Under the pieces are notes generated by a model. It did no database searches. It saw only the letters and a list, made by a program, of their open reading frames with translations, and was not told the DNA's origin. From Escherichia coli (GTDB lineage: Bacteria; Pseudomonadota; Gammaproteobacteria; Enterobacterales; Enterobacteriaceae), in the NCBI RefSeq assembly GCF_003334385.1, contig NZ_QOWN01000061.1: DNA of 19,408 nt; one strand, given 5' to 3'. Every line of letters starts with the position of its first letter. The stretch's first letter is position 1. A program made the translations under genes and the position numbers. Shown here piece by piece: positions 5,906-19,408 of this stretch.

Positions 5906-5937
5906 TATCGGGAGGTAACTCTCCCGATAATCTTTTA
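5906..5937 (+). terminator. Probable intrinsic terminator of glk
   Basis: Inverted repeat TATCGGGAG-gtaa-CTCCCGATA (5906-5928) followed by a short T-rich tract (aTCTTTT), 14 nt after the glk stop. Confidence 0.5.
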
Positions 5938-6110
5938 AATCATACAGTTTATTCAATTTTTCTTTGTGTCCCCTCACAAGGTCGACCTGCGTCACACTTC
6001 CGTACAGCGGGATTAATTCTCCAGTAAATGCATTATTTGTCTGGTAACGGCGATTTGTTTTGCACGTTCATAATTTCACTCGTCAACTATCACTGAACGA
6101 GGAATTAACG

Positions 6111-6437
6111 ATGAGTAAGAAACTGATTGCCTTATGTGCCTGCCCGATGGGCCTGGCTCACACCTTTATGGCCGCTCAGGCGCTGGAAGAAGCGGCGGTA
6201 GAAGCCGGTTATGAAGTGAAAATTGAAACCCAGGGCGCGGACGGTATCCAGAATCGCCTGACGGCGCAGGATATCGCCGAAGCGACCATCATCATCCACT
6301 CCGTGGCAGTTACCCCGGAAGATAACGAACGTTTCGAATCACGCGACGTTTATGAAATCACTTTGCAGGACGCAATTAAAAACGCTGCGGGCATCATCAA
6401 AGAAATCGAAGAGATGATTGCCTCTGAACAACAGTAA
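6111..6437 (+). CDS. fryB: PTS fructose-like EIIB component FryB, 108 aa
   Basis: The ORF-track start at 6060 is trimmed to the ATG at 6111, which is preceded by GAGGA. The active-site Cys context LCACPMGLAHTF is typical of fructose-type EIIB. First gene of a tightly packed five-gene operon. Confidence 0.9.
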   Translation: MSKKLIALCACPMGLAHTFMAAQALEEAAVEAGYEVKIETQGADGIQNRLTAQDIAEATIIIHSVAVTPEDNERFESRDVYEITLQDAIKNAAGIIKEIEEMIASEQQ

Positions 6438-6458
6438 TATTCGACAGGGATAATTGTT

Positions 6459-7706
6459 ATGGCCATTAAAAAACGCAGTGCAACCGTTGTGCCTGGCGCA
6501 TCCGGTGCGGCAGCGGCAGTTAAGAATCCGCAGGCCTCTAAAACCAGCTTCTGGGGTGAACTCCCGCAGCATGTGATGTCAGGGATTTCACGCATGGTGC
6601 CGACCTTAATTATGGGCGGTGTGATCCTCGCTTTCAGCCAGCTGATTGCTTATAGCTGGCTTAAAATTCCTGCTGAGATCGGCATCATGGATGCTCTTAA
6701 TAGCGGGAAATTCTCCGGTTTCGACCTCTCCTTACTTAAATTTGCCTGGCTGTCGCAGTCCTTCGGCGGCGTGTTGTTTGGTTTTGCCATTCCGATGTTT
6801 GCTGCTTTTGTGGCGAACTCTATCGGTGGCAAACTGGCGTTCCCGGCTGGTTTTATCGGCGGGTTGATGTCTACCCAGCCGACGCAACTGCTGAACTTCG
6901 ATCCCAGCACTATGCAATGGGCGACCTCTTCGCCGGTGCCGTCCACCTTCATTGGTGCGCTGATTATTTCTATCGTTGCCGGTTACCTTGTGAAGTGGAT
7001 GAACCAGAAAATCCAGTTACCGGATTTCCTGTTAGCGTTCAAAACCACATTTTTGCTCCCGATTCTTTCCGCCATTTTTGTCATGCTGGCGATGTACTAC
7101 GTCATCACCCCCTTTGGTGGCTGGATCAACGGCGGTATCCGTACTGTGCTGACTGCCGCAGGTGAGAAGGGCGCGCTGATGTACGCAATGGGGATCGCCG
7201 CGGCGACAGCAATCGACCTTGGTGGCCCGATCAACAAAGCCGCAGGTTTTGTTGCCTTCAGCTTTACCACTGACCACGTATTACCGGTCACCGCTCGTTC
7301 TATCGCTATCGTTATTCCGCCGATTGGTCTGGGGCTGGCGACCATTATCGACCGTCGTTTAACCGGCAAACGCCTGTTCAACGCTCAACTTTATCCGCAG
7401 GGTAAGACCGCCATGTTCCTGGCGTTTATGGGGATCAGTGAGGGTGCGATTCCGTTTGCGCTGGAAAGCCCCATCACCGCCATTCCGTCGTATATGGTCG
7501 GCGCTATTGTCGGCTCAACCGCCGCTGTCTGGCTGGGCGCAGTGCAATGGTTCCCGGAGTCCGCTATCTGGGCATGGCCGCTGGTCACTAACCTGGGCGT
7601 CTATATGGCGGGGATCGCGCTGGGGGCAGTCATAACTGCGCTGATGGTGGTGTTCCTGCGTCTGATGATGTTCCGTAAAGGCAAATTGTTAATCGATAGC
7701 CTGTAA
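6459..7706 (+). CDS. fryC: PTS fructose-like EIIC permease FryC, 415 aa
   Basis: Polytopic membrane ORF 22 nt downstream of fryB with an AGGGA ribosome-binding site. Length matches FryC. Confidence 0.92.
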
Positions 7707-7720
7707 GAAGGAAAATCCAG

Positions 7721-8806
7721 ATGACATTACTCGCTTCGCTGCGCGACTGGCTTAAGGCGCAACAACTGGATGTAGTGCTTCTCTCCTCACGGCAGAACAA
7801 ACAGCCGCATCTGGGGATCTCCACCGGATCAGGTTATGTGGTGATTAGCCGTGAAAGTGCGCACATTCTGGTGGATTCGCGCTATTACGTTGAGGTGGAA
7901 GCCCGTGCGCAAGGCTACCAGCTGCATTTGCTTGACGCGACGAACACGCTTACCACTATCGTCAATCAAATCATTGCCGATGAACAGTTGCAAACGCTCG
8001 GTTTTGAGGGCCAGCAGGTGAGTTGGGAAACCGCGCACCGCTGGCAGTCTGAACTCAATGCGAAACTGGTTAGCGCCACGCCGGATGTGCTGCGGCAAAT
8101 CAAAACGCCAGAGGAGGTGGAGAAAATCCGCCTCGCCTGTGGGATTGCTGATCGCGGTGCAGAGCATATTCGCCGCTTTATTCAGGCGGGGATGAGCGAG
8201 CGCGAGATAGCCGCTGAACTGGAGTGGTTTATGCGCCAGCAGGGCGCAGAAAAAGCCTCTTTTGACACCATTGTCGCCAGTGGCTGGCGTGGGGCGCTGC
8301 CGCACGGCAAAGCCAGCGACAAGATTGTTGCAGCGGGCGAGTTTGTCACTCTCGATTTCGGTGCGCTGTATCAGGGCTACTGCTCTGATATGACGCGCAC
8401 CTTGCTGGTGAATGGCGAAGGGGTGAGCGCCGAATCTCACCCGCTGTTTAACGTCTATCAAATTGTCCTGCAGGCACAGCTCGCAGCAATCTCCGCGATT
8501 CGCCCCGGCGTGCGCTGCCAGCAGGTTGACGATGCCGCGCGCCGGGTCATTACAGAAGCAGGTTATGGCGACTATTTCGGTCATAACACCGGTCACGCTA
8601 TCGGCATTGAAGTTCATGAAGATCCGCGTTTTTCACCGCGGGACACCACGACGCTACAGCCAGGCATGTTACTGACCGTGGAGCCGGGGATTTATTTGCC
8701 AGGGCAAGGGGGCGTGCGCATCGAAGATGTTGTGCTGGTTACCCCGCAAGGCGCAGAAGTGCTCTACGCCATGCCGAAAACAGTGTTGCTCACGGGAGAG
8801 GCATAA
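7721..8806 (+). CDS. ypdF: Xaa-Pro aminopeptidase YpdF (peptidase family M24), 361 aa
   Basis: M24 metal-ligand motif [13 protein letters not shown] and the pita-bread fold consensus. AGGAAAA ribosome-binding site before the ATG. Confidence 0.93.
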
Positions 8807-9843
8807 TGGATTTATCGCTATTAAAAGCGTTGAGCGAGGCAGATGCGATCGCCTCCTCGGAACAGGAAGTGCGGCAGATCCTGCTGGAAGAAGCGGATCG
8901 CCTGCAAAAAGAAGTGCGATTTGATGGTCTGGGATCGGTGCTGATCCGCCTGAATGAATCGACAGGTCCGAAGGTGATGATCTGTGCGCATATGGACGAA
9001 GTGGGATTTATGGTGCGCAGCATCTCCCGCGAAGGGGCGATTGATGTGCTGCCGGTTGGCAACGTACGCATGGCTGCCCGCCAGCTGCAGCCGGTGCGCA
9101 TCACCACCCGTGAAGAGTGCAAAATTCCAGGCCTGCTTGACGGCGACCGGCAGGGGAATGACGTCAGCGCCATGCGCGTGGACATTGGTGCGCGCTCCTA
9201 TGACGAAGTGATGCAGGCGGGAATTCGTCCCGGCGATCGCGTCACGTTTGATACCACTTTTCAGGTTCTCCCTCACCAGCGAGTGATGGGGAAAGCCTTT
9301 GATGACCGCCTCGGTTGCTATCTGCTGGTGACGTTACTGCGCGAACTGCACGACGCCGAACTACCTGCGGAAGTGTGGCTGGTGGCAAGTTCCAGCGAAG
9401 AGGTGGGATTACGCGGCGGGCAAACTGCCACCCGCGCGGTGTCGCCGGACGTCGCCATTGTGCTTGATACCGCCTGCTGGGCGAAAAACTTTGATTATGG
9501 CGCGGCTAACCATCGCCAGATTGGTAACGGGCCGATGCTGGTGTTAAGCGACAAGTCGCTGATTGCGCCGCCAAAACTTACCGCCTGGGTCGAAACCGTG
9601 GCGGCAGAAATTGGCGTGCCGTTGCAGGCAGATATGTTCAGCAACGGCGGCACGGACGGCGGGGCGGTGCACTTAACCGGCACCGGCGTGCCCACAGTGG
9701 TGATGGGGCCAGCAACCCGCCATGGACATTGCGCCGCATCGATTGCCGATTGCCGCGACATTTTGCAGATGCAGCAACTTTTATCTGCCCTTATTCAACG
9801 TCTTACGCGTGAGACGGTTGTTCAACTGACGGATTTCAGATGA
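8806..9843 (+). CDS. ypdE: Aminopeptidase YpdE (peptidase family M42, FrvX/SgcX-like), 345 aa
   Basis: M42 signature HMDEVGFMV. The start ATG overlaps the ypdF stop (TAATG), indicating translational coupling. Confidence 0.93.
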
Positions 9844-9867
9844 TCTCCTGATTAACCCGGAGCGGTT

Positions 9868-12363
9868 ATGTTAACGATTCAATTTCTCTGTCCTTTGCCT
9901 AACGGTCTACATGCTCGTCCGGCGTGGGAACTTAAAGAACAGTGCAGCCAGTGGCAAAGCGAAATCACTTTTATTAACCATCGCCAGAACGCAAAGGCAG
10001 ATGCGAAAAGCTCGCTGGCGCTGATTGGCACCGGCACCCTATTTAATGACAGTTGCAGCCTGAACATTAGCGGCAGCGATGAAGAGCAGGCGCGGCGCGT
10101 GCTGGAAGAGTACATCTAGGTGTGCTTTATCGACAGCGACAGCGTTCAGCCTACGCAGGCAGAACTGACGGCGCATCCGCTGCCGCGTTCATTAAGCCGC
10201 CTTAACCCGGATTTACTGTACGGCAATGTGCTGGCAAGCGGCGTCGGCGTGGGTACGCTGACCCTGTTACAAAGCGACAGCCTCGACAGTTATCGGGCAA
10301 TCCCCGCCAGTGCGCAAGATTCCACCCGGCTGGAGCACAGCCTGGCAACGCTTGCCGAGCAACTGAACCAGCAATTGCGTGAGCGTGACGGCGAAAGCAA
10401 AACTATCCTCAGCGCCCATTTGTCGCTGATTCAGGATGATGAATTTGCAGGCAATATCCGTCGCCTGATGACAGAACAGCATCAGGGGCTGGGGGCGGCG
10501 ATCATCAGCAATATGGAGCAGGTTTGCGCCAAACTTTCTGCCTCTGCCAGCGATTATCTGCGCGAACGTGTTAGCGACATTCGCGATATCAGCGAACAGT
10601 TGCTGCATATCACCTGGCCGGAACTGAAGCCGCGCAACAAGCTGGTGCTTGAAAAACCGACCATTCTGGTGGCTGAAGATTTAACCCCAAGCCAGTTTTT
10701 GAGCCTTGATTTGAAAAATCTTGCGGGCATGATTCTGGAGAAAACCGGGCGCACCTCGCATACACTGATTCTGGCCCGTGCCTCGGCGATCCCGGTACTG
10801 AGTGGCTTGCCGCTGGATGCGATTGCCCGTTATGCCGGGCAACCTGCAGTGCTTGACGCCCAGTGCGGCGTGCTGGCGATTAACCCGAATGACGCGGTGA
10901 GCGGTTATTATCAGGTCGCGCAGACGCTGGCGGATAAACGCCAAAAACAACAGGCGCAGGCTGCCGCGCAGCTGGCCTATTCCCGTGATAACAAGCGTAT
11001 TGATATTGCGGCGAATATCGGCACCGCTCTGGAAGCGCCAGGCGCGTTTGCCAACGGCGCGGAAGGTGTCGGGCTGTTCCGTACCGAAATGCTCTATATG
11101 GATCGCGACAGCGCGCCGGACGAGCAGGAGCAATTTGAAGCCTACCAGCAGGTGCTACTGGCGGCGGGCGACAAGCCGATTATCTTCCGCACGATGGACA
11201 TCGGCGGCGATAAAAGCATTCCTTATCTGAATATTCCCCAGGAAGAGAACCCGTTCCTCGGCTATCGCGCGGTACGTATTTACCCGGAATTTGCTGGCCT
11301 GTTCCGCACTCAACTGCGGGCCATTTTGCGCGCCGCCAGTTTCGGCAACGCCCAGTTGATGATCCCGATGGTTCACAGCCTCGATCAGATCTTATGGGTG
11401 AAAGGCGAGATCCAAAAAGCGATCGTTGAGCTTAAGCGCGATGGCCTGCGTCATGCAGAGACGATTACGCTTGGGATCATGGTGGAAGTTCCGTCGGTGT
11501 GCTACATCATCGACCACTTCTGCGATGAGGTCGATTTCTTCAGTATCGGCTCCAACGATATGACCCAGTATCTGTATGCGGTCGATCGTAATAACCCGCG
11601 CGTATCGCCGCTATATAACCCGATTACGCCATCGTTCCTGCGCATGTTGCAGCAAATAGTTACCACTGCGCATCAGCGGGGCAAATGGGTAGGCATTTGC
11701 GGTGAACTGGGCGGTGAAAGCCGTTATCTGCCGCTACTGCTTGGGCTGGGCCTGGATGAGCTGAGTATGAGTAGCCCGCGTATTCCGGCGGTGAAAAGCC
11801 AGCTTCGTCAACTGGATAGCGAGGCGTGTCGGGAACTGGCGCGTCAGGCATGTGAATGCCGCAGTGCGCAGGAAATTGAAGCGTTACTCACCGCCTTTAC
11901 GCCGGAAGAAGACGTTCGCCCACTGCTGGCGCTGGAGAATATCTTTGTTGATCAGGATTTTAGCAATAAAGAGCAGGCGATCCAGTTCCTGTGCGGCAAC
12001 CTCGGCGTTAACGGGCGCACTGAACATCCGTTTGAGCTGGAAGAAGATGTCTGGCAGCGGGAAGAGATTGTTACCACCGGCGTTGGTTTTGGCGTAGCGA
12101 TCCCGCACACCAAATCTCAGTGGATCCGTCATTCCAGTATCAGCATTGCCCGGCTGGCGAAACCGATTGGCTGGCAGTCAGAAATGGGCGAAGTCGAACT
12201 GGTGATCATGCTGACGCTGGGTGCTAACGAAGGGATGAATCATGTGAAAGTCTTCTCGCAGCTGGCGCGTAAACTGGTGAATAAAAACTTCCGCCAGTCG
12301 TTGTTTGCCGCGCAAGATGCACAAAGTATCCTGACGCTGCTGGAAACAGAATTAACCTTCTGA
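9868..12363 (+). CDS. fryA: PTS multiphosphoryl transfer protein FryA (fused HPr-like, Enzyme I-like and EIIA-Fru-like domains). As written, the frame is interrupted by an in-frame TAG at 10117-10119, giving an 83-codon HPr-like ORF (9868-10119) and a 747-codon EI-EIIA ORF (10120-12363).
   Basis: The HPr motif GLHARPA, the EI phospho-His motif GRTSHTLILARA and the EIIA motif GVAIPH are all present in one frame. The span is 2496 nt, which equals 832 codons, the size of a single 831-aa fused protein. The TAG is visible directly in the sequence (TAC ATC TAG GTG TGC). Confidence 0.85.
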
Positions 12364-12365
12364 CG

Positions 12366-13223
12366 TTAGCCCTGAAAACGGGCGCTGTACTCTCCCGGCG
12401 TCAGACCAAACTGACGCCGGAAAACGCGACAAAAATAGTCGCTATCCGGAAAACCGCAACGCTGTGCCACTTCATGAATTGACAGATGATATTTCTGCAA
12501 AATCATCCTCGCCTTCGCCATTCGCACCCAACGCACATACTCGATAAAACGCATCGTTCCATGCTGAGCAAACAGTTTTGACAGATGATTGGGCGTGATA
12601 TTAAAAAACTGCGCCACGCTCTCGCGGGTGAGCGGCTGGGCATAATTATCCTGAACCCAGTTACAAATGCTGTGATAGAGAAAATCGCCGCGCGGCTGCG
12701 AATTGCCCGGCGGCATATTCACCACGCTACGGCAAAGATGCAGCAAACTTAACACCAGCGGCTGAATGATATTTTGCTCCAGCGGCGAACGGCTAAGATG
12801 GGTGAGGGCGGTAAGCATCGCTTCACCTTCACCGCGTTGCAGGCTGGGAAGCTGGATCTGGCGAGCAGGATGCAACAACGACGTGGTGCGGCTATCGTAA
12901 AACGATAACCCAAGCCAGGTCGGAGCGAACACCAGGCTTAACAGCATCACCGGTTTGTTGTTGACCGGTAAATTAGCCGCGCGCGCCGGAATAAACAGCA
13001 TTTCTCCTTCCACCAAACGTTGCTGCTTTGCTTCCAGCAGATTGCCGTATTCGCCGCGCAGCACGATATCCAGACGGGGAAAATCAATACATAAACTGCC
13101 CACCGGCAACGAGGCAGGCTGGCTGGCAAACCAGACGCGCCCCAGTAGTTGCGGGTTAAGCACCAGGCCGCTGAACAGATCGGCGAAAAATTGTTGATCG
13201 GCGGGCAAGCCTGGTGCTTTCAT
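12366..13223 (-). CDS. ypdC: AraC-family transcriptional regulator YpdC, 285 aa
   Basis: C-terminal AraC-type helix-turn-helix (…FIEYVRWVRMAKARMILQ…HEVAQRCGFPDSDYFCRVFRRQFGLTPGEY). Stop TAA at 12366-12368, 2 nt from the fryA stop. Confidence 0.9.
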   Translation of the reverse strand: MKAPGLPADQQFFADLFSGLVLNPQLLGRVWFASQPASLPVGSLCIDFPRLDIVLRGEYGNLLEAKQQRLVEGEMLFIPARAANLPVNNKPVMLLSLVFAPTWLGLSFYDSRTTSLLHPARQIQLPSLQRGEGEAMLTALTHLSRSPLEQNIIQPLVLSLLHLCRSVVNMPPGNSQPRGDFLYHSICNWVQDNYAQPLTRESVAQFFNITPNHLSKLFAQHGTMRFIEYVRWVRMAKARMILQKYHLSIHEVAQRCGFPDSDYFCRVFRRQFGLTPGEYSARFQG

Positions 13224-13235
13224 GAAAGTTCCCGA

Positions 13236-13970
13236 TTAAAGATGCATTAACTGGCGAAATTCTTTCACTTTGCTGCGGCTGACCGGCACTTCAAAATCCA
13301 GATCTTTCAGTCGCAGAATGTAGGTGTTATTAAACCACGGTTCGATTTCGCGTATTTTGTTCAGATTGACACAAAATGAGCGATGGCAGCGGAAAAAATG
13401 CGACGGCGGCAGTTTGCTGCAAAATTCGGTAATGTTCATCGGCATTACGTAGGATTCACGCCGCGTATAGACAAAGGTCATTTTCTCGTGCGCTTCGGCG
13501 TAATAGATATCGTTAATTGGCGTGACGATTATTCGCTCATCTTTCACCAGATTAATGGTGTCATTCTCACGCGTTACCGTCGCGGCAGGCGTACTGCTGG
13601 TCTGCTGTTGTTGCCAGGCCGCTTCCAGTTTTTGCAGCATCCCGGTAATACGTGACTCCTGATACGGTTTGAGAATGTAGTCAAACGCCTCCAGTTCAAA
13701 CGCTTCTACCGCATGTTCTTTCCACGCGGTGATGAACACAATAAACGGTTTATGGGCGAACTGGCTGATGTTTTGCGCCAGCAACACGCCATCCAGCGAC
13801 GGAATATTGATATCCAGAAAAATGGCGTCGACGCGGTTATGCTGCAAAAACTTCAACACGTCCAGACCGTCGTCAAAGGTGCCGACAATCTCCATCTGGC
13901 TGTGCTCTTTAATTAGCCAGCTCAGTTCCTGTTGTGCCAGGAATTCGTCTTCAACAATGATGACTTTCAC
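13236..13970 (-). CDS. ypdB: LytTR-family response regulator YpdB, 244 aa
   Basis: Receiver domain (VIIVEDE…AIFLDINIP) plus a C-terminal LytTR DNA-binding domain. The ORF-track TTG start at 13988 is trimmed to the GTG at 13970, preceded by GGAG, giving 244 aa. Confidence 0.88.
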   Translation of the reverse strand: MKVIIVEDEFLAQQELSWLIKEHSQMEIVGTFDDGLDVLKFLQHNRVDAIFLDINIPSLDGVLLAQNISQFAHKPFIVFITAWKEHAVEAFELEAFDYILKPYQESRITGMLQKLEAAWQQQQTSSTPAATVTRENDTINLVKDERIIVTPINDIYYAEAHEKMTFVYTRRESYVMPMNITEFCSKLPPSHFFRCHRSFCVNLNKIREIEPWFNNTYILRLKDLDFEVPVSRSKVKEFRQLMHL

Positions 13971-13984
13971 AATATCACTCCGGC

Positions 13985-15682
13985 TCAAAGCAATAACGTA
14001 GCCTGTGAGGCGACTGGGGTGCGTTGGTTAGGAATGTAAAACGCAATTTCCGTCCCCGGCTCCAGGCGGCGGATATGCAGCCCCTCGCCATACAATAACT
14101 TCACGCGATGATGGACATTCAGCAGGCCAATTTTATTGCCCGGCATTTCATTCGCTTCGACCCGCTCAATCACCTTTGGATCGATGCCGTGCCCGGTATC
14201 TCGCACCGCAATGCGTACCCGATTTCCGCACTCTGCAACGCTGATGGTGACAACGCCTTTACCTTTGCAAGGCTGAATACCGTGGACAATGGCGTTCTCC
14301 ACCAACGGCTGGATCAGCAGGCTGGGAATGCAGCAATTCACCTCTTCATCAATATCATAGATAACCGTCAGCTTGTCACCAAAGCGGGCCTGCTCAATGG
14401 CAATATAGTCTTTAATTTGATACAGCTCTTTTTTGATATCGATTTGCTCATCGTCTTTTAATTCAATGTTATAGCGCAGATAACGCGACAGATTAAAGAT
14501 CAACTGGCGAGCGGTATCCGGATTCAGACGGATTGACGATGAAATAGCGTTCAGAGCGTTAAACAGAAAATGGGGATTAATTTTGCTTTGCAGGGCGCGA
14601 AGCTCTGCCTTATTTGCCATTTCACGTAGCTGCTCGGCGCGTGAAACCTCCAGTTGCGTGGAGATGATTTGCGACAGACCGACCGCCATTTCCTGTAATG
14701 ACGAGGTGATCTGATGCGCGTGGCAGTAGTAAATTTTCAGCGTTCCGGTCACGACCCCTTTCTCCCACAATGGGATCACCAGCATGGAATGAATCTCTGG
14801 TGTGCGGTGGGCTTCATCATTGTTTTTAATGATGATTTTTCCGTAATTCATCGCCTGACGGGTAGTCGGGCTAATGAAGTCATCGCCATTCTGATAGTTA
14901 TGTTCACCCACGCCAACATAGGCCAGCACATGATCGGTATTAGTAATCGCCACCGCATCGGCGTGAATGTCATCGCGGATAATTTCGCAGACCTTGCGTA
15001 ATGACTCGCTATTGACATGGCGAAACAGCGGTAGCGTTTTGTTGGCGATATCCAGCGCCAGCTTGGCCTGCCGCGCGGCGCTGGCCTCTTTTTCGCCCTC
15101 AACGCTTTGCACCAGAAGCACAATAAAGCCGATACAGACGCTACCGAGGATCATTGGAATGCCGATTTTAGAGACGATATCGATCCCCAACGCGGTAGTT
15201 GGTGCCCAGACAATTACCAGAATCATGGTCAACGTCTCACACAACATGCCGCCGAGAATACCGACGCGCCAGCGCTGTGCTTTGGGGATTTTCAGGTTGA
15301 TCCAGCCCGATATACAACCCGCCAGAATGCTGGTGATAAAGCAGGGGATCGCCGTCACGCCGCCGATATCAATTAAATACCGGTGAATACCCGCAATCAC
15401 GCCGGTAATGATGCCTACCCACGGGCCAAACAGAATCCCGCCGGACATCACCGCGATAATACGTACGTTCACCAGCGAGCCTTCTACGGGAACGCCGGAC
15501 CAGGTGCTGAACAGGGCGAACAGCGAGAAAATGGCGGTAACGGCGAGCAATTCTTTTGGGGAGTGCGCCGACTTGTGCAACAGTTCGCGAAACAGGCGGA
15601 TACGGATGAGAAAGAACAGGCAGATAAGCATTAACGCTGCCCGATCGAAGACCGCCAGCAGCATGTTGAATATTTCGTGCAC
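13985..15682 (-). CDS. ypdA: LytS-family sensor histidine kinase YpdA, 565 aa
   Basis: N-terminal multi-transmembrane sensor domain, a central GAF-like region, the H-box [10 protein letters not shown] and a C-terminal ATPase domain. It lies immediately upstream of ypdB on the same strand. Confidence 0.93.
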
Positions 15683-19303: not shown

Positions 19304-19408
19304 TGGGTCAGGATGGCTCATTTGGGCAGGTTGATCTTACCCAGCAATAGTGGACACGCGGCTAAGTGAGTAAACTCTCAGTCAGAGGTGACTCACATGA
19401 CAAAAACA

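Follow-up and report, generated by a model that had tools for sequence, protein, structure and literature searches.

Organization of the convergent fryA-ypdC junction of Escherichia coli, with YpdC as a candidate regulator of the fry operon

The fry operon and ypdC of Escherichia coli converge tail to tail and their coding sequences nearly touch. This raises two questions: how transcripts from either side end at such a junction, and whether the AraC-type product of ypdC governs the operon next to it. YpdC is one of the few remaining E. coli K-12 AraC-family regulators without a known target and fry is an uncharacterised PTS; the literature on YpdC targets or fry regulation was found to hold nothing beyond lists. 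The DNA analyzed (the window) is a stretch of 19,408 nucleotides from E. coli (assembly GCF_003334385.1, contig NZ_QOWN01000061.1). Positions are those of the window unless a RefSeq record is named, and its features are collected in Table 1.

Table 1. Coordinates of genes and sequence elements in the window
Feature	Position	Strand	Basis or remark
CRP-like site (core GTCGA-N6-TCACA at 5981-5996)	5978-5999	+	
First 20-bp direct repeat, GGGATTAATTCTCCAGTAAA	6009-6028	+	proposed YpdC operator
Second 20-bp direct repeat, TGCATTATTTGTCTGGTAAC	6029-6048	+	proposed YpdC operator
CATAAT, proposed -10 of the fryB promoter	6069-6074	+	invariant in 21 genomes
fryB	6111-6437	+	ORF list, annotation
fryC	6459-7706	+	ORF list, annotation
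ypdF, M24 aminopeptidase	7721-8806	+	ORF list, annotation
ypdE, M42 aminopeptidase	8806-9843	+	ORF list, annotation
fryA (HPr-EI-IIA fusion)	9868-12363	+	ORF list; NCBIfam PTS_I_fam, fructose IIA domain
Rho termination region, ypdC-sense strand	12335 (= NC_000913.3 2502018)	-	Adams et al. 2021, supplementary file 2
fryA stop codon TGA	12361-12363	+	sequence, ORF list
Gap CG separating the stop codons (2 bp)	12364-12365		sequence
ypdC stop codon TAA (reads TTA on +)	12366-12368	-	sequence
ypdC, 285 aa, AraC/XylS-family regulator	12366-13223	-	ORF list, Pfam
Perfect 10-bp hairpin, CCGGCGTCAG-N6-CTGACGCCGG	12395-12420	both	folding, conservation
C-rich, G-poor stretch of fry-sense RNA, candidate Rho loading region	12421-12620	+	composition
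ypdB, two-component system with ypdA	13236-13970 (as annotated)	-	ORF list, annotation
ypdA, pyruvate-responsive two-component system	13985-15682	-	ORF list, annotation

The fryA-ypdC junction and termination of its transcripts

The original prediction placed the stop codons of fryA and ypdC 2 bp apart. Reading of the sequence, the ORF list and the RefSeq annotation of MG1655 all confirm this. The plus strand reads ACC TTC TGA CG TTA GCC across the junction, and the same 2-bp gap is found in the MG1655 RefSeq records NZ_CP032667 and NC_000913.3 (in the latter, ypdC is at 2501130-2501987 and fryA at 2501990-2504485). That picture needs one amendment, as fryA is not an intact frame of 831 codons in the window: an in-frame TAG at positions 10117-10119 interrupts the gene.

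Short gaps between convergent genes are no rarity in E. coli. Of 704 convergent gene pairs counted in a 2026 preprint, 207 have REP elements and 383 are REP-free with a positive, length-matched gap; thus up to about 114 pairs are overlapping, abutting or very long. What is beyond chance is the persistence of the fryA-ypdC junction. The stop-to-stop distance ranges from overlapping to 13 bp in 24 of the 34 orthologous loci, in genera whose YpdC sequences are 58-83% identical, and inserts of 104 bp to 8 kb are present in 10 loci from several lineages. The 2-bp tail-to-tail arrangement may represent the compact ancestral form. The inserts between fryA and ypdC in two Salmonella loci display REP-like palindromes, as judged by eye.

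A consensus scan combined with folding detected no intrinsic terminator (a hairpin followed by a T-run) on either strand up to 250 bp from the junction. The nearest terminator-like sites are at 12627-12614 (minus strand), which is inside ypdC, and at 10969-10954 (minus) and 14590-14608 (plus), each more than 1 kb away. On the ypdC-sense strand a Rho termination region has been reported 31 nt beyond the ypdC stop codon, antisense to the 3′ end of fryA (Adams et al. 2021); its position is the peak of an analysis in 800-nt windows and not a mapped 3′ end. Across this position the read count drops from 69 to 14 in the absence of bicyclomycin and is 41 before and 51 after it in the presence of the drug, and the Rho score is 6.13 (p = 1.5e-7) on the ypdC-sense strand only (Adams et al. 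2021). On the fry-sense strand, the 200 nt that follow the hairpin described below contain 54 C and 37 G, with the GC skew falling to -0.38 at positions 12450-12549.

It had been argued that the junction leaves no room for a terminator and that the transcripts must therefore collide. The first part stands, as there is no intergenic or intrinsic terminator. The second part does not follow, because Rho termination needs no gap and the reported region lies just past the end of ypdC. In the proposed mechanism, each polymerase would enter the untranslated antisense of the opposite gene and would be stopped there by Rho rather than in the gap. A Rho region past ypdC, together with a hairpin and C-rich tract past fryA, implies that the antisense overlap is short and Rho-limited. 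Nothing shows a regulatory role for this overlap. A promoter-like sequence, TTGACA-16-AATCAT, is present antisense in ypdC at positions 12479-12506 (plus strand), but the count of such matches in the region is not above shuffle expectation and it was not retained.

The hairpin within the 3′ end of ypdC

A perfect hairpin lies 31 nt past the fryA stop codon and occupies codons 268-277 of ypdC. At the DNA level it is an inverted repeat of 26 bp. It folds with z = -5.0 on the plus strand; the stem forms equally in both transcripts and can be extended to 14 pairs in the ypdC sense. The nucleotides at its 3′ side are AAAACG on the plus strand and GAGAGU on the minus strand, and no T-run follows on either. 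Of 22 loci with a tight junction, 21 retain at least nine of the ten pairs; in Buttiauxella the junction is tight but the hairpin is absent. Among eight loci with an insertion between the genes, four have a decayed hairpin (two of these four are Salmonella), a contrast between tight and separated junctions that represents few independent lineages.

The hairpin coincides with the strongest conservation of synonymous codons in ypdC (the top 7-codon window; permutation p = 0.008). Codon use differs sharply from that of the gene as a whole: CGG 95% vs 21%, ACG 100% vs 47%, CCG 100% vs 56% and TTC 90% vs 20%. The third-position bases pair with fixed first positions, which makes compensatory change impossible, and the evidence is one of conservation only. 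A mirror-image hairpin that would serve the ypdC mRNA was not found in the 3′ end of fryA, and synonymous constraint is absent there. A search of Rfam over positions 11800-13300 detected no family; the sole match, DicF (E = 0.75), is below the gathering threshold and is caused by the hairpin.

Judged from the sequence, the hairpin and the C-rich tract downstream of it most likely form an exonuclease-resistant 3′ end of the fry mRNA. Rho-dependent 3′ ends with such an anatomy have been described, including some inside downstream coding regions (Dar & Sorek 2018). The resemblance to these protected ends lies in a stable GC-rich stem-loop without uridines after it, an excess of C over G just downstream, and a possible placement inside the coding region of the next gene. 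Unlike those ends, the ypdC hairpin shares its DNA with a conserved FRRQFGLTPG motif encoded on the opposite strand, and the fry-strand end is a predicted one. The Term-seq table of Adams et al. (2021) has no entry at the hairpin position, nor do the supplementary 3′-end tables of SMRT-Cappable-seq have one for the junction. The junction would add a case in which a transcript-end element must be encoded within conserved codons of an opposite-strand gene.

The hairpin may have another role than that of a fry 3′ end. It could position head-on polymerase collisions, as in the bidirectional terminators of Ju and Wang, act as part of the ypdC mRNA, or serve as a palindrome to which a protein binds. 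These roles are unlikely but carry some weight. The stem is available to both transcripts and is longer in the ypdC sense, the palindrome exists in the DNA, and a stem-loop was required for positioning the collisions of convergent genes in the work of Wang et al. However, the hairpin lies eight codons ahead of the ypdC stop codon, thus ypdC transcripts ended there would be mRNAs without a stop codon. The lack of both a mirror-image element in fryA and an Rfam family also speaks against these roles. Collision-type terminators (Ju 2019; Wang 2022 preprint) likewise involve convergent genes that lack a canonical intrinsic terminator and have a stem-loop close to their ends. Their stem-loop sits between the genes, whereas the present one is inside a coding region, and those terminators are described as Rho-independent, whereas the ypdC strand is Rho-dependent, i.e. 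bicyclomycin-sensitive. Assignment of the junction to this class was set aside on these two counts. A protected 3′ end of the fry mRNA remains the preferred reading.

Composition of the ypdC-fry cassette

YpdC loci were compared in 35 cases from about a dozen genera of the Enterobacteriaceae. fryA is present in 34 of these, and the full operon is found wherever the contig permits. ypdA and ypdB, by comparison, are missing from the upstream flank in 20 of the 35. They are present in the loci of Escherichia, Citrobacter, Pseudocitrobacter and Kluyvera and absent from those of Salmonella, Enterobacter, Pluralibacter, Lelliottia, Superficieibacter, Huaxiibacter and Buttiauxella. A YpdA-type kinase has been reported not to occur in Salmonella (Behr 2017). 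In the three ypdAB-less loci that were inspected (L017, L019 and L025) an alpha/beta hydrolase gene is upstream of the cassette, with rnk and ahpF further upstream in L019; the E. coli cassette differs from all three in its glk-alaC context. Thus ypdC and fryB-fryC-ypdF-ypdE-fryA appear to form a single, mobile catabolic cassette, about 7.2 kb long.

There are exceptions to the association. Citrobacter amalonaticus has kept ypdABC with no fry genes within 10 kb, and some strains of E. coli and Shigella retain fry with a ypdC that is truncated or interrupted by IS1.

ypdA and ypdB (RefSeq now names ypdB/ypdA pyrR/pyrS) are a neighbor of the cassette and not a member of it. They are usually listed with ypdC as one operon, but co-occurrence across these loci does not bear out a ypdA-ypdB-ypdC unit and sets ypdC apart from the pyruvate-sensing pair. 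In loci with ypdAB, 12 bp separate the end of ypdB from the start of ypdC on the same strand, a spacing that makes co-transcription in E. coli possible. The acquisition of the pair upstream of ypdC may be confined to the Escherichia-Citrobacter group. The distribution of ypdAB marks the pyruvate link as lineage-specific and not ancestral, and the earlier suggestion that pyruvate sensing indirectly controls fry is weak.

A search with FryA as query returned close relatives only and was unhelpful for fry operons without ypdC, so a search with representative YpdE sequences was used in its place. This shows distant operons that combine a PTS with M24 and M42 peptidases and have a dedicated neighboring regulator, of the PRD type. 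These, and the E. coli frv operon with FrvR, resemble fry in having a PTS IIB/IIC set, an M42 and often an M24 peptidase, and an adjoining dedicated regulator; FrvR is itself listed as an AraC-family factor. In the distant loci, however, the PRD/Mga-type activator gene is upstream and in the same direction, whereas fry has a convergent AraC-type gene. The distant operon versions also carry an aminotransferase and an alanine dehydrogenase.

YpdC and the fryB promoter

As an AraC-type regulator YpdC is full-length, combining a modeled beta-barrel sensor with a double helix-turn-helix domain. Its C-terminal domain, about 100 aa long and with a pair of helix-turn-helix motifs, is typical of the AraC/XylS family: Pfam HTH_18 is at residues 204-281 (E = 2.9e-20) and HTH_AraC is also found. 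PDB profile matches are to the DNA-binding domains of AraC, SoxS, GadX and MarA, and the structure model (pLDDT 82.6) matches these folds with TM-scores of 0.8-0.88. In the model a helical C-terminal DNA-binding domain is joined to an N-terminal beta-barrel, with seven strands at residues 30-126, and the full-length matches are Rns, CsvR and ToxT. Pfam calls no domain in the N-terminal half. Its modeled fold displays similarities to the RhaR regulatory domain (5u9e, E = 8e-4) and to RmlC-like cupins (E about 4e-3); RhaR NCBIfam profiles align from residue 47 with scores below their cut-offs, and RhaR/AraC profile matches extend into the N-terminal half.

The original prediction had YpdC as a candidate regulator of fry, and had proposed positions 5940-6110 for footprinting. 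The idea gains support from the near-constant pairing of ypdC with fry, also in the loci without ypdAB, and from a conserved direct-repeat operator candidate with a CRP-like site, which lie within that stretch. The two 20-bp repeats score 29.3 and 21.1 bits with their matrix; the next best score in the window is 8.6 and the mean maximum in shuffles is 10.1. Neither the window nor any of the 20-kb loci has a match to the matrix outside the fryB promoter site, and the motif is absent from the one locus without fry. A second copy upstream of ypdC or ypdA was not found, the other scores (8.6 bits or below) being shuffle noise, so autoregulation is not indicated.

Conservation across 21 genomes delimits the elements. 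The mean column identity is 0.74 for the CRP-like site, 0.77 and 0.87 for the repeats and 1.0 for CATAAT, as against 0.47-0.51 for flanks and spacers. The repeats end 20 bp ahead of CATAAT, and the -35 position (about 6045-6051) is poor and non-conserved. TCACAyTT of the CRP-like site does not vary, and the left half of the site (GTCGA), poor as a whole, has a conserved GA. TCACA and CATAAT are always 76-77 bp apart, and CATAAT precedes the ATG by a variable 35 to 63 bp. fryB is among the targets of cAMP-CRP in genomic SELEX (Shimada 2011).

With a transcription start assumed near position 6081, the CRP-like site would be centered at -92.5 and the repeats would span about -72 to -33, values that may be off by a few bases. 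Class II AraC-type promoters that also depend on CRP have two direct-repeat half-sites spaced by about two helical turns, the proximal one over a weak -35, and the sequence, with this assumed start, displays them; the CRP-like site likewise lies upstream of the repeats, as in such promoters. YpdC most likely binds these repeats. Inducer-loaded YpdC would then activate the promoter together with cAMP-CRP about 92 bp upstream of the start, in the manner of araBAD and rhaBAD, and YpdC is probably the fry operon's own on-switch.

The comparison with araBAD (AraC and CRP) and rhaBAD (RhaS and CRP) is close in several respects. In both, an AraC-family dimer has two direct-repeat half-sites, of which the one nearer the promoter overlaps a weak -35, and CRP binds about 92-93 bp ahead of the start. 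Their regulators carry a C-terminal double helix-turn-helix and a beta-barrel sensor, for which YpdC has a modeled counterpart. fry differs in the 20-bp period of its repeats, in that no upstream looping or autoregulatory site was found, and in that ypdC converges on and abuts the operon end, whereas the ara and rha regulator genes are divergent from the operon start. Control of this kind is ordinary for a sugar operon and will not surprise specialists. Its value is a testable target for an uncharacterised regulator, and the guess from adjacency is now specific: a candidate operator at 6009-6048 and a predicted dependence on CRP.

A published genome-wide ChIP-exo analysis of 8-myc-tagged YpdC detected no binding site anywhere. 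This was done in glucose minimal medium with no inducer, a possible reason for the empty result. The tag extended the DNA-binding domain at its C-terminus, and its chromosomal insertion lay at the 3′ end of ypdC beside the fryA junction.

The negative ChIP-exo result would also fit a reading in which another regulator binds the repeats, YpdC acts elsewhere and its linkage to fry is historical, as would C. amalonaticus and the strains that retain fry with a broken ypdC. We consider this quite unlikely, since the pairing outlasts the loss of ypdAB and relocation (as in the three loci inspected), the cassette has no other regulator gene, the geometry of direct repeats overlapping the -35 is typical of AraC-family dimers, and the motif disappears where fry does. 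That the terminator-less junction is itself the regulatory device, with ypdABC transcription and hence pyruvate sensing interfering with fry through collision or antisense RNA, or the reverse, appears less probable again. Some ypdC-sense reads do enter fryA antisense (14 vs 69 upstream), and the tight junction and the short ypdB-ypdC spacing agree with it. But most read-through is removed by Rho in the first few hundred nucleotides, large inserts are tolerated, and the same junction occurs without ypdAB in 20 loci, thus the pyruvate link is not the reason for its retention. A 2-bp gap is moreover a tiny mutational target, and neutral persistence is possible. The least probable reading has YpdC as a repressor of fry. 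The operon is regarded as cryptic in laboratory culture and some AraC-family members do repress, but the repeats are upstream of and overlapping the poor -35 and not over the -10 or the start, and an invariant -10, a non-conserved -35 and a CRP-like site near -92 are the standard layout of an activator-dependent promoter.

We lean, if only somewhat, towards the joint reading: a mobile cassette in which YpdC and CRP activate fryB, transcripts are ended by Rho, the fry 3′ end is protected by the hairpin, and ypdAB joined later. It is improbable that the abutting layout is kept for feedback, where fry polymerases activated by YpdC and CRP would invade the end of ypdC and throttle synthesis of their activator, with the hairpin and Rho setting their reach.

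On a more speculative level, the substrate of the cassette may be a sugar linked to an amino acid or a peptide, with both aminopeptidases trimming the conjugate. If such a conjugate is imported, the released alanine and pyruvate would explain the presence of alaC and of a pyruvate sensor beside the E. coli cassette, as well as the aminotransferase and alanine dehydrogenase in the distant versions of the operon.

Genes that accompany ypdC

The window is close to E. coli K-12. The gene order from glk to yfdX is that of MG1655 with the orientation reversed, and only five single-base differences from MG1655 are found ahead of an insertion at the window end.

Features of the ypdC-fry region with window coordinates
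Feature	Position	Strand	Description	Mean column identity
glk, fryB, fryC, ypdF, ypdE, fryA		+		
ypdC, ypdB, ypdA		-		
alaC		+	after ypdA	
CRP-like 22-mer	5978-5999		core GTCGA-N6-TCACA; TCACAyTT invariant	0.74
Tandem 20-bp repeats	6009-6028, 6029-6048		consensus TGCATCATTTGTCCGGTAAA	0.77, 0.87
CATAAT	6069-6074		invariant	1.0
Perfect 10-bp hairpin	12395-12420		CCGGCGUCAG-N6-CUGACGCCGG; 31 nt past fryA stop; inside ypdC codons 268-277 (FRRQFGLTPG)	

A search of one-genome-per-species contigs with a YpdC orthologue profile gave 35 orthologous loci, with which the E. coli proteins were compared by tblastn. fryA is present in 34 of the 35 loci, and the complete fryB-fryC-ypdF-ypdE-fryA set (the fry operon) is found wherever the contig is long enough. 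In all 24 loci with a tight junction, i.e. with fryA and ypdC stop codons that overlap or are up to 13 bp apart, fryA is convergent and immediately past ypdC. The ypdA and ypdB genes of the pyruvate-responsive two-component system (ypdAB, now named pyrS/pyrR in RefSeq) are present in only 15 loci, which are from Escherichia, Citrobacter, Pseudocitrobacter and Kluyvera, and are absent from the other 20. Salmonella arizonae and diarizonae both lack ypdA/ypdB and have alaC immediately upstream of ypdC. Three other ypdAB-less loci inspected (L017, L019 and L025) have an alpha/beta hydrolase gene upstream of the cassette of ypdC and fry; L019 has rnk and ahpF further upstream, a chromosomal neighborhood unlike that of E. 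coli. Independent of this survey, Salmonella has no YpdA-type kinase (Behr et al. 2017). ypdAB adjoins its target yhjX in Serratia and Yersinia (Behr et al. 2017), and no YpdC orthologue from these two genera was found in the orthologue profile or the locus searches.

There is one counter-example. Citrobacter amalonaticus (L009, positions 10859-20855) has ypdA-ypdB-ypdC with unrelated open reading frames after ypdC, and neither the fry genes nor the repeat motif of the fryB promoter was found within 10 kb downstream of ypdC. This double dissociation indicates that ypdC goes with fry and not with ypdAB. The link from pyruvate sensing to fry that was part of the original prediction would at most apply to the Escherichia-Citrobacter group, in which the ypdC start is 12 bp past ypdB.

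ypdC is split by IS1 in some E. coli isolates (NZ_AP021896, NZ_AP027873, NZ_AP027713 and NZ_AP027886) and is truncated in Shigella proteins, thus the regulator is dispensable in some lineages.

The fryB promoter and the YpdC protein

When the 230 bp ahead of fryB are aligned across 21 genomes, a sharp phylogenetic footprint is seen that consists of a CRP-like site, two tandem repeats and a CATAAT sequence. Column identity outside these blocks (spacers, upstream flank and 5′ UTR) is 0.47-0.51. The TCACA-to-CATAAT spacing is 76-77 bp in 21 of 21 genomes and the distance from CATAAT to the ATG is 35 to 63 bp; the -35 position is unconserved and is poor in E. coli. A weight matrix of the repeat scores 29.3 and 21.1 bits at the two fryB repeats and no higher than 8.6 bits elsewhere in the 19.4-kb window, with a mean maximum of 10.1 for shuffled sequences. 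Each 20-kb locus shows matches at the fryB promoter alone, and there is no match in the locus without fry. The 8.6-bit match, at 13227-13246 (-), is located at the 12-bp ypdB-ypdC gap (13224-13235) and is within noise.

If transcription is assumed to start about 7 nt past CATAAT, near position 6081, the repeats would lie at approximately -72 to -33, with the center of the CRP-like site at about -92.5. Placed beside the reference site positions of the araBAD and rhaBAD promoters, this would be the same arrangement. fryB is among the new cAMP-CRP targets found by genomic SELEX (Shimada et al. 2011). The glk terminator, at 5906-5929, precedes the CRP-like site by about 50 bp and has a 10-bp stem, TATCGGGAGG...CCTCCCGATA, followed by ATCTTTTAAA; the alignment shows that it is not conserved outside Escherichia.

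A direct-repeat operator of this type requires a two-domain AraC-type regulator. YpdC displays an AraC-family double helix-turn-helix at residues 204-281. Its AlphaFold model (pLDDT 82.6) adds a beta-barrel at the N terminus and a linker helix. The whole model matches Rns, CsvR and ToxT, and the barrel matches the RhaR regulatory domain (model match, E = 8e-4). RhaR profiles align to YpdC from residue 47 with scores that are under their cut-offs. Because of the double helix-turn-helix and the modeled barrel, YpdC is predicted to be a two-domain AraC-type regulator of the ligand-responsive kind.

YpdC is listed as uncharacterised in the literature, and no paper connecting it to fry was found. 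In a ChIP-exo analysis of 40 candidate factors YpdC was without a peak “under the test conditions”, which were glucose minimal medium and a chromosomal C-terminal 8-myc tag. The inducer was absent and the tag was on the DNA-binding end, inserted at the ypdC 3′ end beside the junction, thus the negative result carries little weight. The proposal that YpdC is a candidate regulator of fry gains support, and is sharpened, by the ypdC-fry pairing in 34 of 35 loci and by the conserved fryB direct repeats. The ypdC-fry pair would represent an AraC-type, CRP-assisted sugar-operon switch, a kind already known of which this is a putative new member.

Outside the Enterobacteriaceae, the nearest relatives of YpdE (42%-45% identity) are encoded on metagenome contigs in operons with PTS IIA/IIB/IIC and M24 and M42 peptidase genes (L040, positions 6094-14624, L041 and L042). 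In the loci of one relative, P0248 (L040 and L041), the operon is directly preceded by a PRD/Mga-type regulator gene and followed by genes for an aminotransferase and an alanine dehydrogenase, which is reminiscent of alaC beside the E. coli cassette. One locus of a second relative, P0250, also has an aminotransferase downstream. Thus the module recurs with its own adjacent regulator, the type of which varies. The enzymes it encodes hint, speculatively, at a sugar-amino acid or sugar-peptide substrate.

The fryA-ypdC junction and its transcript ends

The fryA stop codon (TGA, 12361-12363, plus strand) is followed by CG at 12364-12365 and by TTA at 12366-12368, which is the ypdC TAA on the minus strand. 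The head-on junction with a 2-bp gap is therefore exactly as originally described, and the gap is identical in the RefSeq annotation of MG1655. Convergent E. coli genes with a short gap are not unusual (of 704 convergent pairs in one survey, up to ~114 overlap, abut or are very long), thus abutment by itself means little. The two stops are 1-2 bp apart in Escherichia. Pseudocitrobacter, Enterobacter, Pluralibacter, Superficieibacter, Huaxiibacter and Lelliottia have distances of 1-6 bp, one further genus has 13 bp, and in Buttiauxella the stops overlap. The junction is tight in 24 of 34 fryA-containing loci, and 10 loci have insertions between the genes. These are 104-107 bp in length in Salmonella enterica subsp. 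arizonae and diarizonae (L013 10856-10959, L035 10856-10962), with REP-like palindromes as judged by eye, and 282-368 bp in the Citrobacter freundii group; others are 1.1, 6.8 and 8.2 kb long. The tight junction is thus ancestral and long-lived, yet dispensable.

A hairpin-plus-T-run was not found near the junction. In the data of Adams et al. (2021), the ypdC strand has a Rho termination region at NC_000913.3 2502018 (+ strand), which is antisense to fryA and carries the label “primary” with respect to ypdC. Without bicyclomycin, the 800-nt windows have 69 reads upstream and 14 downstream; with bicyclomycin the counts are 41 and 51 (Rho score 6.13, p = 1.5e-7; Adams et al. 2021). This position corresponds to window position 12335, 31 nt past the ypdC stop (ypdC ends at 2501987). 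The Rho dependence is clear and the position resolution coarse. The Term-seq tables of the same study have no 3′ end at the junction, which is consistent with low expression. A sigma-70 consensus match at 12479-12506 (+), with TTGACA, a 16-bp spacer and AATCAT (10 of 12 positions), reads antisense into ypdC. The region has 11 promoter-like matches, which is not above the shuffle expectation of 8.4 ± 3.0.

The hairpin in the 3′ end of ypdC concerns the fry strand. Codon identity was scanned in 7-codon windows across ypdC in 20 non-redundant tight-junction genomes, and codons 270-276 form the best window of the gene (0.907 vs. a gene mean of 0.654; permutation p = 0.008). The hairpin and the remainder of ypdC differ in codon usage: 95% vs. 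21% for CGG, 75% vs. 21% for CGT, 100% vs. 47% for ACG, 100% vs. 56% for CCG, 100% vs. 53% for CTG and 90% vs. 20% for TTC. The hairpin is thus maintained by selection at synonymous sites; the last 70 codons of fryA show no comparable constraint. At least 9 of the 10 pairs are kept in 21 of 22 tight-junction loci, the sole exception being Buttiauxella, in which the encoded residues are different. Only 6-8 pairs remain in 4 of the 8 loci with an insertion between the genes, including both Salmonella loci, a contrast between tight and separated lineages that rests on few independent events.

On neither strand does a U-run come after the hairpin. The fry-sense RNA continues from it into a C-rich, G-poor tract (54 C vs. 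37 G in 200 nt, GC skew down to -0.38). The Rho-dependent 3′ ends described by Dar and Sorek (2018) combine a stable stem-loop with C enriched over G downstream and no U-tract, and the stem shields the transcript from PNPase and RNase II. From this anatomy and its conservation, we infer that the hairpin probably forms a protective 3′ end for fry mRNA. The original statement that the two transcripts must run into each other holds for a short Rho-limited stretch only, and nothing shows a regulatory role for the encounter. The arrangement of transcript ends is unusual but explicable.

Strain differences in fryA and at the window end

fryA in this strain has an in-frame amber codon, TAG at 10117-10119, in place of the MG1655 CAG (codon 84), with GTG directly after, and a second C-to-T change at 10123 results in R86C. 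The TAG is near the HPr/EI domain boundary. A search of 5,426 complete E. coli genomes did not find these changes (best match 99.2% over 261 bp). Unless the TAG is suppressed or translation re-initiates, ~2.2 kb of fryA would be untranslated and exposed to Rho, thus fewer fry transcripts would arrive at the junction in this strain. The remaining three single-base differences from MG1655 (7773, 8442 and 15842) affect ypdF twice and the ypdA-alaC intergenic region once. Divergence from MG1655 starts at 19332, and the new sequence, TGATCTTACCCAGCAATAGTGGACACGCGG...ATGACAAAAACA at 19333-19408, resembles an IS3 left end, which would be inserted upstream of yfdX.
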